Part shown: piece by piece, positions 1,955-14,629 of the stretch
Position numbering within the stretch: the stretch's first letter is position 1
Layout: every line of letters starts with the position of its first letter
Source: an uncultured Gammaproteobacteria bacterium
GTDB lineage: Bacteria; Patescibacteriota; Patescibacteriia; UBA1558; 2-01-FULL-52-15
NCBI GenBank assembly: GCA_964441335.1
Contig: CAYTUI010000001.1
Coordinates: 961 to 64,960, forward strand
DNA: 64,000 bases
Reading direction: 5' to 3'
Notes under the pieces: generated by a model
What the model was told of the DNA's origin: nothing
The model's database searches: none
Seen by the model: only the letters and a program-made list of their open reading frames with translations
Made by a program: the position numbers and the translations under genes

Positions 1955-2278
1955 AGATTTGACTATTTTTGGACAAGGTGTTAATAAATAAGCGTTTGCT
2001 AAGGAAGCTCATCACGTGAGTACGAATACGTAGCTCGCTGCTAACTCACAATCAGCGGCGACTTTTGTTCCGTCCGAGCAAAGTCTGACGATTACGGTCG
2101 TCAGGGGCTGCCGAATGGGCATGGGGCTCCTTTCCAGACTGCAGATCGAGCTGCGGTTTGACGTTGAGCAGAACGTTACCCCAAGTATGAACTGCCGGAA
2201 GTACCACACATGATCAATGGGGAAAGAGGCATTCAGGCCGAATTCCTGCTACGGGGTCTGGCTCGGCCTTAGCAAATT

Positions 2279-2319
2279 GCGCCTTCTGCACTGCTCTATG
2301 CGGAAGGCGCTTTTCTTTG
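2279..2319 (+). terminator. Rho-independent terminator (GCGCCTTC...GAAGGCGC plus T-tract)
   Basis: 8-bp GC stem with 16-nt loop followed by TTTTCTTT; closes the GC-rich structured region 1955-2330. Confidence 0.6.
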
Positions 2320-2353
2320 ACTTTAGACCTGTTTCAGATTAAACTAGGCACAT

Positions 2354-4144
2354 ATGACGCCAATTGAGGAAATAAAATCACGTCTGGATATAGTGGATAT
2401 TATCGGCGGCTATTTTCCGCTCAAGCAGTCAGGCACCAACTGGAAGGCTAACTGTCCGTTTCATCAGGAAAAAACGCCGTCTTTTATGGTTTCCAAAGAT
2501 AAGCAGATTTGGCATTGCTTTGGCTGTAATGAAGGTGGTGATGCTATTTCCTTTGTGCAAAAATATGAGGGTTTGGAATTTTCCGAGGCTTTAAAAATGC
2601 TGGCTGACAAAGCCGGTGTTATTTTACCCGATTTTAAAACCGGTGATCAGAGTTTTAAAAAAAATATTCTCTGGGAATTAAATGAGCAGGCTCTGAAGTA
2701 TTGGCAAAATATTTTAAATCAGGAAACCCCGAGCGCTGTTAAGACACGTGATTATTTACATCAAAGAGGTCTAACGCCGGAAACAATTACCCAATGGTCT
2801 TTGGGTTTATCTTCAGAAAAATGGGATGGTCTTTATAATTATTTGAAAGAAAAAAAATACCAAGACGAGGATATTAATCAGTCGGGGTTAATAATCAGGA
2901 AAGACAGTAAGGTTTTTGATCGTTTCAGACAACGTTTAATGTTTCCGATTCGTGACGGTCAGGGCAAAGTAGTTGGTTTTACCGCGCGGACTTTGATGGG
3001 CTTTGTTTTTGAAGGTGAAGATTTTGGCGGTAAGTATGTCAACACTCCACAGACCGCAGTTTATAACAAGAGCGCTATTCTTTATGGTTTGGATTTTGCC
3101 AAACAGGAAATTAAACGACATGATTATGTAATTGTTGTGGAAGGCAATATGGATGTCATCATGTCGCAGCAGGCCGGAGTAAAAAATGTGGTAGCTGTAT
3201 CTGGTACCGCTCTGACCCCAGATCAATTGAGAATAATTAAGAGATATACCAATAATATAATTTTATCTTTTGACGCTGACGCGGCCGGCTCGCAGGCGAT
3301 ATACAAAAGTGGAATAATTTCCGCGGCGGACTTTGATATGAATGTTAAAGCTTTAATTTTGGAAGGCGGTAAAGATCCGGCTGACATAGTTAAGGCAAAT
3401 TCGGAAGATTGGAAGGCTTTAATTAAAAAAAGTATTCCAATTGTGGATTTTTATTATAGTGAAATATTTAAACGAGTTGATATTAACCGCGCTGATCATA
3501 AAAAAATTGCGGTTCATAAAATATTGAGCATTTTGGCGATGCTGAAGGATAAGGTGGAGCAGGATCATTACATCAGGAAAATTGCCGATGATTTGAATAT
3601 CTCCTCACAAGTTTTGTGGGAACAGTTGGCCAAGTTAAATCGGCAGAATTCTTCGCAGGTTGGTGAGGTAGTGGGAGTAAAGACCAAACTTGCGGACGAC
3701 AGGGTTGATTTATTGAGTCAGACGATTTTGGCATTGGTTGGTTCATATCCAGCCTGTTTGCCGGCTTTAATAGATAAGGTAGAACCGGAGGTCTTTTCTT
3801 TGGAGCTCCAAGACCTTTACAAAAAGATAATAATCTATTACACTAAGAACCAATCTGACGATTTAAAGGGGCTTGGTACTGCCTTAGATAGTCAACAATT
3901 GAATCAGTGGAGCAAAATAGTTCACCAGTCTGAAGAATTTTATAATGATTGGGATGAACAACAGCTGGTCAAGGAGTTTGAGCAGTTATCCAAAAGATTG
4001 CTCAAGCGCTGGTTGCAAACGCGACTTAAAGCTCTGTCTCAAAGGATTGAGGCGGCCGAGCAGGCTGGTTTGCAGGAGGATGTTGACAGTTTAACCTTAG
4101 AATTTAGCGATTTGAGTAAAAAACTCTCTGAATATTTATCTTAA
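2354..4144 (+). CDS. dnaG: DNA primase DnaG
   Basis: CHC2 zinc finger (CPFHQEKTPSF...WHCFGCNEGGDAISFV), TOPRIM region (VVEGNMDV, SFDADAAG); followed by rpoD. Confidence 0.95.
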   Translation: MTPIEEIKSRLDIVDIIGGYFPLKQSGTNWKANCPFHQEKTPSFMVSKDKQIWHCFGCNEGGDAISFVQKYEGLEFSEALKMLADKAGVILPDFKTGDQSFKKNILWELNEQALKYWQNILNQETPSAVKTRDYLHQRGLTPETITQWSLGLSSEKWDGLYNYLKEKKYQDEDINQSGLIIRKDSKVFDRFRQRLMFPIRDGQGKVVGFTARTLMGFVFEGEDFGGKYVNTPQTAVYNKSAILYGLDFAKQEIKRHDYVIVVEGNMDVIMSQQAGVKNVVAVSGTALTPDQLRIIKRYTNNIILSFDADAAGSQAIYKSGIISAADFDMNVKALILEGGKDPADIVKANSEDWKALIKKSIPIVDFYYSEIFKRVDINRADHKKIAVHKILSILAMLKDKVEQDHYIRKIADDLNISSQVLWEQLAKLNRQNSSQVGEVVGVKTKLADDRVDLLSQTILALVGSYPACLPALIDKVEPEVFSLELQDLYKKIIIYYTKNQSDDLKGLGTALDSQQLNQWSKIVHQSEEFYNDWDEQQLVKEFEQLSKRLLKRWLQTRLKALSQRIEAAEQAGLQEDVDSLTLEFSDLSKKLSEYLS

Positions 4145-5554: not shown

Positions 5555-5631
5555 CGCGGGGTAGAGCAGTCAGGCAGCTCGCCAGGCCCATAACCTGGAG
5601 GTCGCCGGTTCAAATCCGGCCCCCGCTACCA
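5555..5631 (+). tRNA. tRNA-Met (anticodon CAT), initiator-like (1:72 mismatch C.U, GG/CC in anticodon stem), CCA encoded
   Basis: Cloverleaf read directly: CGCGGGG-TA-GAGC..GCTC, anticodon loop CCCATAA, T-arm GCCGG-TTCAAAT-CCGGC, 3' CCCCGCTACCA. Confidence 0.8.
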
Positions 5632-5720
5632 CGCCATTCGCGAATGGCGTGGGCTACCCACATCGTTCCCGAACGACATGGGCTACCCATCACGCCATTC
5701 ACGAATGGCGTGAGTCCCCC
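5632..5720 (+). repeat. REP-like hairpin array directly abutting the tRNA-Met 3' end
   Basis: Perfect palindrome ACGCCATTCGCGAATGGCGT (centre TCGCGA), then two GGGCTACCCA-flanked hairpin units (GTGGG-CTA-CCCAC) and a second palindrome CACGCCATTCACGAATGGCGTG. Units contain CTAC and echo the tRNA GCTACCA end. Confidence 0.6.
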
Positions 5721-5811: not shown

Positions 5812-6078
5812 ATGTTTTATTTTTATATTATACAAAGTCAAAAAGACAAAAATTGGTTCTATAAGGGTCAAACCGGCGATTTGCGAAATAGAATGCGGCG
5901 CCATCATAGTGGGATGGTTAAATCAACCGCTAAATATTTGCCAGTTAGATTGGTTTATTATGAGGCTTATATAACTAGGAGAGCCGCTAAACAAAGAGAA
6001 TGGAGTGTAAAATATCATGGATCGGTTTCTGTCCCGTTACTTAAAAGAATAAAGAGAAGCCTTGAAGATAAGGACTAG
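5812..6078 (+). CDS. GIY-YIG nuclease superfamily protein (UPF0213/YhbQ-like), 88 aa
   Basis: FYFYIIQSQKDKNWFYKGQTGDLRNRMRRH matches the GIY-x10-YIG..R..H core; small stand-alone gene between two tRNA-Met genes. Confidence 0.7.
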   Translation: MFYFYIIQSQKDKNWFYKGQTGDLRNRMRRHHSGMVKSTAKYLPVRLVYYEAYITRRAAKQREWSVKYHGSVSVPLLKRIKRSLEDKD

Positions 6079-6120: not shown

Positions 6121-6197
6121 GGCGGGGTAGCTCAGTTGGTTAGAGCGCAGGACTCATAAGCCTGAGGTCGTGGGTTCGATTCCCACCCCCGCTACCA
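6121..6197 (+). tRNA. tRNA-Met/Ile2-type (anticodon CAT), elongator-like, CCA encoded
   Basis: GGCGGGG-TA-GCTC AGTTGGTTA GAGC, anticodon loop CTCATAA, T-arm GTGGG-TTCGATT-CCCAC, 3' CCCCGCTACCA. Confidence 0.8.
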
Positions 6198-9021: not shown

Positions 9022-9464
9022 AAAAATTTTTCAACCACCAAAGCGATAATTGTGGCGTAAATCCCGGCTAGAATGTCGTCGGCCATGATGCCAAATGTTT
9101 TGGGTAATGATTGCAGATAATTGATACCAACCCATTTAGTAATATCAAATAGTCTAAAAGCAATGAGACCCACCGCATATAACCAAATGTTTTGGGGTAG
9201 GAAAGTAACAACCAGTAGAGCACCGACGATTTCATCGGAGACGATAAAGTGAGGGTCTTGATAATTGTACTTGCTTCTGAACAGCTCGGTTGCTGGCCAT
9301 AGTATTAACAAACTAACAATGAAAATTAACGCTCGCCAGGTAATGTCCAAAGGACTGACAAATAAATAGGCCAAAATGAAAATTATTAGGCTGGTAATCG
9401 TGCCGGAAGCGGCCAGATAGCCCAAACCGAAAAAGGTGCTTAATAGTTTGCTAATTTTTAACAT
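9018..9464 (-). CDS. pgpA: Phosphatidylglycerophosphatase A (PgpA)
   Basis: FGLGY...G.T, DEIVG, FRLFDI, G.MADDILAG motifs characteristic of PgpA. Confidence 0.8.
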   Translation of the reverse strand: MLKISKLLSTFFGLGYLAASGTITSLIIFILAYLFVSPLDITWRALIFIVSLLILWPATELFRSKYNYQDPHFIVSDEIVGALLVVTFLPQNIWLYAVGLIAFRLFDITKWVGINYLQSLPKTFGIMADDILAGIYATIIALVVEKFL

Positions 9465-10338
9465 GGCGGTTGGTGATTATTGGTAAAGCTTGTTTAATGA
9501 TCTCTATATTGAGTGATTTCTGATTGTCTTCTAAATAATCTCCGTCAACTTGAACCTTATCGTCGGTTTCCAGACGGATGACGAAATGCCTACCTTCTAT
9601 GATAGATAAATGACGAGGTGGGCTATCATGAAAATAATAATAGTAGGTAGCTTCAATAAAGCTGAAAAAATTTTTATTGGTGGCCACGGTTAATTCAAAT
9701 TTTCCGTCCTGCAAATCGCTGTTACGCTTTGGCTCAAAGCCAAAAAGTCTGGAGGTGTTGACGACAAATAGACTGTTGCCCTGTCGCTGATAATCCTGAC
9801 CGTCCACAGTAAAACTAAAATTATATTGGGGCATTCTGGTTTTCCAAAGGAAACTCATTAAATAAGCCATAAAACCGAAAGATCTTTTTAGTTTTTGTTC
9901 GGCAGCCACAACTCTTTCCGATAAATAACCGATTGCAAAAGCCTCTAAGAAGTAATCTCTTTTGTTGATTAAGCCCACATCAATGTATTCTATGTTGCCC
10001 TCGTTAATAACCTCAAGAGCCTGATGGAGTGATCGGGGAATATAAAGACTTTGGGCCAGCACGTTTGCCGAGCCGGTAGGTAGTATTCCGATGGGGATAT
10101 TAAGCTTATTTTTTAGTATGAATTCTGCTACCCGGCGAATAGTTCCGTCGCCACCGGCGATAATAATAAGGTCGTATTTATAATCTTTGGCTAAAGGTTT
10201 GACGTTCAGAAAATTTTCAAAGTTTTTAAAATACAGCTGGTATTTGGATCGTTTAAGATTCTTTTTGATGGTTGGCAAAAGTCTGGAGCGGCGTCTGCGC
10301 CCGGCGGCTAAATTATAAATGACTAAAACTTTTTTCAT
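9451..10338 (-). CDS. Diacylglycerol/lipid kinase, catalytic-domain family (YegS/BmrU-like)
   Basis: VLVIYNLAAG..., IIAGGDGT, GILPTGSANVLA motifs of DAGK_cat lipid kinases. Confidence 0.8.
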   Translation of the reverse strand: MKKVLVIYNLAAGRRRRSRLLPTIKKNLKRSKYQLYFKNFENFLNVKPLAKDYKYDLIIIAGGDGTIRRVAEFILKNKLNIPIGILPTGSANVLAQSLYIPRSLHQALEVINEGNIEYIDVGLINKRDYFLEAFAIGYLSERVVAAEQKLKRSFGFMAYLMSFLWKTRMPQYNFSFTVDGQDYQRQGNSLFVVNTSRLFGFEPKRNSDLQDGKFELTVATNKNFFSFIEATYYYYFHDSPPRHLSIIEGRHFVIRLETDDKVQVDGDYLEDNQKSLNIEIIKQALPIITNRHVKN

Positions 10339-13567: not shown

Positions 13568-14629
13568 ATGCAACGATCTTTTGCGCAGAAAGCCAATCTG
13601 ACATTTGTAGAAATTATAGCTATTGTTTTAAGCACAGTTGGCGTGGTTATTTTTTTATTTTGGGAAATTTATCAAAGAGTTTATTTATATGGTGGTGTCT
13701 TAATTCATAAATTACTAACCGCCTGTGGTTGTACGCAGATGGCCCAGTTAATTGCTATGCACCCATTAATATTTATTGCTGTAATTACTCTCGGTTTGGT
13801 CATTATGACCTATTTATTTTATACAGTTTATCGATTAATAAAATTAATTATTCAGACAAGAAGGTTTGTATCTTTATATTTAAAACGGGCAAAAGACCAA
13901 CACTCAACAAAATTGCGCGATGTTGTAGCTGGTTTAAATATTGATGCATCCAAGGTCATTGAAATTAGAGATGTTAGGACAGTGGTGTTTTGTTTTGGTC
14001 TTTGGCGTCCCAAAGTATGTATTTCTAGCGGTTTGATAAAAATGCTGGACAAAGGCGAGTTAGAAGCTGTTTTACTACACGAATATCATCACTTGATTTC
14101 CAGGGAGCCTGTTAAAATGTTTGCTATAAAATATTTTCAAAGTATTTTCTTCTTTTTACCGGGAATAAAAGCTGGTGTAAATAAGTATCTGACATATTCA
14201 GAATTAGCTGCTGATGAACGGGCGACGAATAATTTTCTTGATAAATTGAAGTTGGCCAGAGCTTTATACAAAATATCTGAAAAAGAGGAGAACTTACTTT
14301 TGCGAACTGGCTTGGCCTTATCTTTTTTCAGTTCCGTTATTGGGGTACGGGTTAGTAAGCTTTCAAATAATGACTACGTGCCTAATTTTAAATTGCAGGT
14401 CACGAGGTTTTATACGGGGTTAGGTATAGCAATCGTGGTTCTTTTGGGTATGATGTTATTTTTAACAGATAGCTCAAAAGCGTTCGCCATGCATGACACG
14501 GGCAGTTGTATTTCAAATATCAACGGAACTCAAAATAACGGCTTGGTTTGCGATGATAATACTCAGCAATCAGCCGGCTTAAATGAAGGCAATTACTCGG
14601 CAGCGTTAACCAACTGTAAAATGAAGTAA
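13568..14629 (+). CDS. BlaR1/M56-family membrane zinc-peptidase (signal transducer/antirepressor-like) without a recognisable sensor domain
   Basis: HEXXH (LLHEYHHLISREP) in a multi-TM context following a BlaI-like gene. Confidence 0.7.
   Translation: MQRSFAQKANLTFVEIIAIVLSTVGVVIFLFWEIYQRVYLYGGVLIHKLLTACGCTQMAQLIAMHPLIFIAVITLGLVIMTYLFYTVYRLIKLIIQTRRFVSLYLKRAKDQHSTKLRDVVAGLNIDASKVIEIRDVRTVVFCFGLWRPKVCISSGLIKMLDKGELEAVLLHEYHHLISREPVKMFAIKYFQSIFFFLPGIKAGVNKYLTYSELAADERATNNFLDKLKLARALYKISEKEENLLLRTGLALSFFSSVIGVRVSKLSNNDYVPNFKLQVTRFYTGLGIAIVVLLGMMLFLTDSSKAFAMHDTGSCISNINGTQNNGLVCDDNTQQSAGLNEGNYSAALTNCKMK

Follow-up and report, generated by a model that had tools for sequence, protein, structure and literature searches.

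A probable new family of structured non-coding RNA encoded beside dnaG and other genes in CPR bacteria

Introduction

Several large orphan non-coding RNAs of bacteria, among them the raiA motif, OLE, ROOL, GOLLD and HEARO, came to light as GC-rich intergenic regions, a history for which PMC11109978, for example, is a partial source. The RNA described here resembles these classes in occupying a long GC-rich intergenic region of an AT-rich genome, in having a promoter and a terminator of its own (both predicted here), and in combining many covarying helices, tertiary contacts and invariant junctions with a narrow range and no obvious function. It differs from them in helix topology and in host range, being carried by CPR bacteria whereas the large orphan RNAs belong to Firmicutes, Actinobacteria or phages, and it matches none of the Rfam covariance models for OLE, ROOL, GOLLD, raiA or HEARO.

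Large bacterial RNAs with intricate conserved tertiary folds are, to our knowledge, rare, and nearly all of the classes that we know to have been solved proved fundamental, with roles in catalysis, translation quality control, protein targeting or RNA-guided DNA transactions. The CPR bacteria, or Patescibacteria, have, so far as we are aware, tiny genomes that can spare little space for dispensable DNA, and their non-coding RNA is almost unexplored. The locus considered here lies in a 64,000-nt stretch of DNA, referred to throughout as the window and belonging to a genome of Candidatus Komeilibacteria reconstructed from groundwater metagenome data; in it a 399-nt spacer separates the gene of a 115-aa orphan protein (1607-1954) from dnaG (2354-4144), which is itself followed by rpoD.

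Composition, folding and coding potential of the spacer

The GC content of the spacer is 0.50-0.58 over positions 2001-2350, against 0.23-0.46 (about 38%) in the flanking 100-nt windows. Folded on the + strand, positions 1990-2320 reach -129.7 kcal/mol, compared with -109.9 +/- 5.7 kcal/mol in dinucleotide shuffles (z = -3.48), and none of 100 shuffles folds equally well; the - strand gives z = -2.65. A terminator scan places a 12-bp hairpin, GCGCCTTC...GAAGGCGC followed by a T-tract, at 2279-2310 on the + strand. The only open reading frames in the GC-rich spacer are short, and none is conserved between lineages, their strand, frame and length all varying; a small-peptide gene was ruled out, no reading frame being kept across lineages.

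These properties bear out most of an earlier note on this DNA, which had described positions 1955-2330 as a highly structured segment of much higher GC than its surroundings, lacking a convincing open reading frame, ending in a Rho-independent terminator and lying immediately upstream of dnaG. The description was right in each of these respects, because GC content, fold z-scores, short reading frames and the hairpin with its T-tract all agree; the structure is further borne out by conservation and covariation in eight lineages, and dnaG indeed starts at 2354. One of the local stems singled out, CTCATCACGTGAG, is the conserved hairpin A (2007-2021) of the model presented below. The span itself holds as the site of a structured RNA but needs new limits: the RNA proper is about 325 nt long, running roughly from 1994 to 2319 on the + strand, while the first 40 nt of the earlier span (1955-1993) contain a promoter-like element and positions 2317-2353 form part of the promoter-like element of dnaG.

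Other structured patches occur in the window. Directly 3' of tRNA-Ser (13-97) lies a GC-rich patch (98-260, GC 0.53-0.61, fold z = -3.1) that has no Rfam match and overlaps the start of a TTG-initiated reading frame (124-759). Directly 3' of a tRNA-Met gene (5555-5631), positions 5632-5710 hold two copies of the 18-nt palindrome CGCCATTC(G/A)CGAATGGCG flanking a direct repeat, TGGGCTACCCA, present twice (fold z = -5.07); a GIY-YIG-like 88-aa reading frame (5812-6078) and a second tRNA-Met gene (6121-6197) follow on the 3' side. Two tRNA-Met genes about 220-530 nt apart are found near rpoD in relatives as well.

Homologs and distribution

The RNA was found in the window and in seven further lineages (L009, L089, L094, L101, L104, L105 and L108), and it is conserved between lineages with DnaG identity no higher than 60%. 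A DnaG scan of species-representative genomes gave 80 Patescibacteria loci, of which only L009, a Komeilibacteria metagenome-assembled genome (MAG) with a DnaG identity of 61%, carries the RNA, in the matching position. Candidates rejected among these loci were an apparent block match in L034, which is coding sequence of a PEP-utilising enzyme, the GC-rich dnaG-upstream regions of L025 and L065, which are a small minus-strand gene, and a T-arm-like string in L013, which belongs to neither a tRNA nor a tmRNA. The two diverged homologs of the 115-aa protein led to L089 and L094, in both of which the RNA lies between that gene and dnaG.

Blocks invariant in the window, L009, L089 and L094 served as a synteny-independent pattern for scanning JGI metagenomes. 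Thirteen matches were returned; six prove to be genuine homologs and share the GAGCAAAG block as well (L101, L104, L105 and L108, together with further finds of the L089 and L094 lineages), and the other seven are chance matches in coding DNA. An nhmmer profile run on 854 kb of DNA recovered exactly the known copies, each full-length and one per locus. Carriers are few, uncultured and from groundwater: they fall within the Komeilibacteria, with at least one further CPR bacterium of Parcubacteria type (Paceibacterota), L101 deriving from a MAG named Candidatus Paceibacterota.

In L010 and nine other close DnaG relatives (among L010-L016 and L112-L116, four of them from the latter series) no RNA is present beside dnaG. 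So narrow a known range, with close relatives devoid of the RNA at this site, is hard to square with an essential housekeeping function, unless the gene lies elsewhere in those genomes.

Secondary structure and covariation

Comparison of the eight lineages yields the following elements, all in window coordinates.

1995-2004 (TTTGCTAAGG) with 2267-2276 (CCUUAGCAAA), + strand: helix P1, closing the whole domain; 10 of 10 pairs compensatory, 95% paired, 8 lineages
2007-2021, + strand: hairpin A, GCUCA-UCACG-UGAGU, also returned by RNAalifold from the MAFFT alignment; compensatory changes at 2 of 4 pairs
2022-2029, + strand: linker ACGAAUAC, in which AAU is invariant
2030-2062, + strand: hairpin B, predicted by the MFE fold; a hairpin is present here in every lineage, variable in length and sequence
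2074-2079 (CCGAGC) with 2261-2266 (GCUCGG), + strand: helix P2, 100% paired, its 3' strand abutting the 3' strand of P1
2080-2083, + strand: junction AAAG, invariant, as is the GAGCAAAG block
2084-2105, + strand: hairpin C, UCUGACGA-UUAC-GGUCGUCAGG, variable in length; changes on both sides at 7 of the 7 pairs predicted by RNAalifold
2109-2121, + strand: hairpin F, UGCC-GAAUG-GGCA, changing to UGUC/GACA; 87.5% paired
2123-2126 (GGGG) with 2179-2182 (CCCC), + strand: helix G, placed in 5 lineages, with compensatory changes there at 4 of 4 pairs
2161-2176, + strand: hairpin H, ACGUU-GAGCAG-AACGU; stem 3 of 3 compensatory, loop (2166-2171) the 5' kissing partner
2185-2188, + strand: junction GUAU (consensus G(U/A)AU)
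2189-2196 with 2228-2234, + strand: stem D; 6 of 7 pairs compensatory, 100% paired
2234-2239 with 2255-2260 (in GGGUCUG, 2254-2260), + strand: CAGGYY/GGUCUG pairing, from RNAalifold; one-sided changes only
2240-2246, + strand: GAAUUCC, invariant, in the core loop; contains the palindrome GAAUUC
2279-2310, with U-tract 2311-2319, + strand: hairpin T, a predicted intrinsic terminator; stem 8 of 8 compensatory, loop CUGCUC (2291-2296)

P1 also appears in the single-sequence MFE fold, and P2 changes from CCGAGC/GCUCGG to CUGAGC/GCUCAG in L089 and to CGGAGC/GCUCCG in L101. Nested inside helix G are a CUCC block, which is conserved, a hairpin that varies, and hairpin H. Within stem D an internal loop, GGAAGUACC / GGGGAAAGA, has conserved GGA...AGA flanks and reads AGUA/GAA in four of the eight lineages, a combination that may represent a sarcin-ricin or loop-E motif. 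The core, where AGGCC (2235-2239) pairs with GGUCU in the window, is surrounded by the invariant junction strands AAAG, G(U/A)AU, CAGG..GAAUUCC and GGGUCUG. Invariance of the 3' core (CAGG, GAAUUCC and GGGUCUGGCUC) is established in only the four lineages that were found without the pattern, because the search pattern itself forced it in the other four.

On a hand-built helix alignment of the eight lineages, the nine-helix model has 97.3% of 404 cells paired, a fraction inflated by curation of that alignment around the model; of the 52 pairs, 40 vary on both sides, with a covariation score of 0.784. In slid controls, in which the 3' partners were moved by 1-3 columns, 37-43% of cells paired, 9-13 pairs changed on both sides and the score was about 0.1, and none of 500 shuffles reached the observed values of pairing and covariation. 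The helix alignment was built by hand because a whole-length MAFFT alignment was scrambled in the variable middle, and because it was so fitted, RNAalifold was also run on the raw MAFFT alignment. This independent run returned roughly half of the helices and no more: hairpins A and C, P2, the 3' hairpin and the pairing CAGGYY/GGUCUG. P1 was lost through misalignment. Compensatory pairs across diverged homologs, the mark of a structured RNA, are thus present, and are partly confirmed on an unbiased alignment.

Some pairings did not survive comparison. A stem GGCCGA/UCGGCC around the 3' core was ruled out, being broken, by eye, in L089 and L094, and pairing of the CUCC block with the loop of stem D was not supported. 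Hairpin E (CCNN/NNGG) was left out of the model because its register is inconsistent between lineages.

A kissing contact between hairpins T and H

The loops of hairpins H and T form a 6-bp covarying complement that is 97.9% paired, with compensatory changes at five of six positions. The two strands read as follows.

Window and L104: H loop GAGCAG, T loop CUGCUC
L009: H loop AAGCAG, T loop CUGCUU
L089: H loop GGACAG, T loop CUGUCC
L094: H loop UGGCAG, T loop CUGCCA
L105: H loop AUGUAG, T loop CUACAU
L101: H loop GCGAGG, T loop CCUCGC
L108: H loop AGCAG, T loop CUGCU

An unbiased listing of T-loop complements in the body of the RNA, limited to perfect matches of 5 nt or more, shows in each of the eight lineages one of 5-6 nt at a constant position, 17-19 nt upstream of the G(U/A)AU junction, and six different hexamer pairs are represented. 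In composition-preserving shuffles of the loop, the chance of such a placement is 0.06-0.18 per lineage. The terminator hairpin is, on this comparison, part of the conserved fold.

Gene context

The RNA lies directly upstream of dnaG in five of the eight copies. In L101 it adjoins pnp, in L104 it is found between a CsoR-like gene and a membrane-protein gene, and in L105 it precedes a PolX-like gene, such that the genes downstream comprise dnaG (five lineages), a 133-aa reading frame, a membrane-protein gene and the PolX-like gene. The coherent set of downstream genes that is looked for in a riboswitch was not found. In L010 the same flanking genes are present with the RNA missing between them, the arrangement being the 115-aa gene, a plain terminator and dnaG. 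Because three copies stand in unrelated contexts and the flanks of L010 lack the RNA, it is read as a separate gene and not as a leader of dnaG.

Upstream of P1 the window holds an element that would suit such a gene.

1959-1987, + strand: promoter-like element of the RNA, TTGACT (1959-1964), 17-nt spacer and TAATAA (1982-1987), read from the sequence

The predicted start of the RNA falls at about 1993-1995, right at P1. The element was omitted by a promoter scan because its -10 matches at only three of six positions. Five of the eight lineages (the window, L094, L101, L104 and L108) have a sigma-70-like element whose end lies 7-10 nt upstream of P1; in the last four it consists of TTGAC(N)-17-TAnnnT or an extended -10. 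A separate promoter-like element, TTGnnn-17-TA(A/C)ACT, about 8 nt before the ATG, belongs to dnaG and is conserved in genomes with and without the RNA. It is seen at 2317-2356 in the window and in L009-L015, with no Shine-Dalgarno sequence, which suggests that the dnaG mRNA may be leaderless in this clade.

One rival to a separate gene is a cis-acting leader, a riboswitch or attenuator of the dnaG-rpoD operon, in which a sensing domain would set the state of the terminator at 2279-2319 and hence read-through into dnaG. The terminator-ended copies that stand just before dnaG, on its strand, invite this view, and some riboswitches, the cobalamin type among them, use a kissing loop between aptamer and platform; as in the cobalamin type, the loop of a 3' regulatory or terminator hairpin here kisses an internal hairpin loop. 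Unlike the cobalamin type, however, the RNA has no B12 box, no covariance-model match and mutually unrelated downstream genes. The kiss engages the terminator loop and leaves the stem intact, and a non-exhaustive look revealed no conserved anti-terminator pairing that would compete with that stem. The three copies that precede unrelated genes, the position of dnaG's own promoter-like element between the terminator and the ATG, also in relatives without the RNA, and the lack of a match to any riboswitch model likewise count against a leader, which is highly unlikely.

The 115-aa protein encoded next door is an orphan of great rarity, represented by only three clusters among 5.8 billion proteins and having no Pfam domain. 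Its gene is invariably flanked by an SdpI-like membrane-protein gene on one side and on the other by dnaG or, in carriers, by the RNA. As an obligate partner of the RNA it was ruled out: three carriers, L101, L104 and L105, have no copy of it close to the RNA, and L010 has the gene but not the RNA.

Relationship to known RNA families

All 4227 families of Rfam 15 were searched with cmscan, at gathering thresholds for the entire window and at E <= 10 for positions 1850-2450. The whole window gave six tRNAs and nothing else at gathering thresholds; 1850-2450 gave nothing relevant, only two unrelated chance matches with E > 8. In the seven homologous loci, searched at E <= 5, no family was placed on the RNA. 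Within these limits (E <= 10 for the window copy, E <= 5 for the seven homologs) Rfam 15 gives no match to RNaseP_bact_a or RNaseP_bact_b, to an intron or to a riboswitch, and an ARAGORN search of both strands was negative for tmRNA. Because the Rfam scans and ARAGORN are negative, RNase P RNA, tmRNA, SRP RNA, 6S RNA, introns, riboswitches and the large orphan RNAs are not supported as identities for this RNA. A literature search with the core string of the RNA returned no match, and searches on the motif and on non-coding RNAs of CPR bacteria returned nothing relevant.

The suggestion of an RNase P RNA or tmRNA in the earlier note was therefore not upheld by Rfam 15 or ARAGORN. Its more cautious statement, that no canonical RNase P P4 or tmRNA motifs could be seen and that the segment was best left unassigned, proved correct, there being neither a P4 partner nor a tRNA-like end. 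The Infernal search of Rfam that it proposed has now been run, and the RNA matches no Rfam 15 family; of the three absences that it named as together counting against its reading, those of an Rfam hit, of conservation and of transcription, the first holds but the second does not, since eight lineages share the RNA.

The closest of the universal RNAs is bacterial RNase P RNA, which the new RNA resembles in size class, in its closing P1, in its long-range helices and in an A-rich invariant junction (GAGCAAAG here, GAGGAAAG in RNase P RNA); T-loop-like elements are possible in both. The P4 helix of RNase P RNA is formed by CR-I (GAGGAAAGUCCGGGC) and CR-V (ACAGAAnCCGGCUUA). In the new RNA no distal P4 partner is conserved, GAGCAAAG being followed by the local, length-variable hairpin C, and CR-II to CR-V blocks are absent. 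The GAGC block also differs in placement, pairing beside P1 whereas its RNase P counterpart follows the P3 hairpin.

Neither a tRNA-like acceptor with a CCA end nor a tag reading frame, as expected of tmRNA, was seen, and the 3' end of the RNA is the terminator hairpin. SRP RNA has no Rfam match here, and the eight-lineage comparison shows no conserved GGAA-capped helix with the helix-8 GNAR motif; 6S RNA has no Rfam match either, and the supported fold is multi-branched, not a rod with a central bubble. In L105, at 9434-9448, hairpin B is T-arm-like (GGGGUUCAAUUCCCC) and gives a trivial 15-nt match to a tmRNA fragment; the sequences at the hairpin B position of other lineages are unrelated to it.

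An extremely diverged RNase P RNA, tmRNA, SRP RNA or 6S RNA, lying beyond the reach of current models in this CPR clade, would account for the size, the GC enrichment and the stand-alone promoter and terminator, all typical of such genes, and for the resemblance of GAGCAAAG to the GAGGAAAG of CR-I. The string CAGAAC, which might be added to that resemblance, is present in the window and L009 and is not kept in the other lineages. Against such an identity stand not only the negative searches and the missing hallmarks of each class but also the role of GAGC, which forms the 5' strand of a long-range helix beside P1 and not a J3/4-P4 segment, and the close relatives without the RNA at the dnaG locus. 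A disguised universal RNA is accordingly very doubtful.

The same Paceibacterota contig that carries the L101 copy has two sub-threshold matches to the type III hammerhead ribozyme on its - strand, at 10170-10224 (33.6 bits) and 13838-13900 (31.8 bits), the gathering score being 48.5.

Mobile elements and remnants

Patchy occurrence among close relatives and varying locations are also what would be expected of an RNA belonging to a mobile or defence element, such as a guide, omega or bridge RNA, a retron msr/msd or a type III antitoxin, that had inserted beside dnaG. In L089 the RNA is bracketed by two copies of an arrangement in which a terminator T-tract overlaps TTGACT (2670-2700 and 3005-3035), one of these duplicated junctions following the 115-aa gene and the other preceding dnaG, so that the RNA cassette looks as if it had been inserted by duplicating a T-tract/TTGACT junction. 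However, the RNA has no regular neighbour among transposase, reverse transcriptase, TnpB/IscB, recombinase or nuclease genes, it is present in a single copy per locus without terminal repeats, and neither a HEARO nor a retron-type Rfam model matches. No phage match to the RNA was found and no genuine match on a viral contig, both viral pattern matches being due to chance. An RNA of this kind is most improbable here.

A degraded coding remnant or a functionless, chance GC-rich spacer, for which nothing speaks beyond the missing match to a known family, is effectively refuted by covariation, given invariant blocks that are separated by compensatory helices and kept among lineages with DnaG identities of 60% or less, and given no conserved reading frame.

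Proposed role and significance

Most probably, then, positions ~1994-2319 of the + strand are a genuine, stand-alone gene for a structured non-coding RNA of an undescribed family. In the proposed course of events, a sigma-70-type promoter of its own, predicted to lie a few nucleotides before P1, would drive the RNA, and transcription would end at hairpin T. The finished hairpin T would then dock onto hairpin H, locking the fold and probably shielding the 3' end. Rather than regulating dnaG, the finished RNA would do its work in trans, as a molecule of the housekeeping kind with a structural, protein-binding or catalytic function. A structural or catalytic role in trans is put forward tentatively, at somewhat less than even chances.

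A bolder proposal, to which a smaller though not negligible probability is attached, is that the RNA represents a new functional class, whether a new ribozyme, a CPR RNA that interacts with tRNA or the ribosome, or a self-assembling RNA. For the last of these, the H/T kiss and the invariant GAAUUC loop would act between molecules and give rise to homo-dimers or larger RNA-only assemblies. Such a reading is allowed because an invariant palindrome in a closed loop has the look of a symmetric dimer interface. This 6-nt palindrome, invariant and in a loop closed by a conserved stem, recalls the hairpins of retroviral dimerisation initiation sites and other palindromic kissing loops, a resemblance of sequence alone, organism and context being unrelated. 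RNA-only assemblies have recently been seen for ROOL, GOLLD and OLE.

Regardless of its role, the RNA corrects the annotation of this locus, where a seeming leader of dnaG is read as a separate gene. Its interest to RNA biologists is real, if tempered by the narrow distribution known at present. With its ~325 nt, at least nine covarying helices, a terminator-based kissing lock and an invariant core, it offers a concrete candidate for RNA biology that would be new in CPR bacteria.
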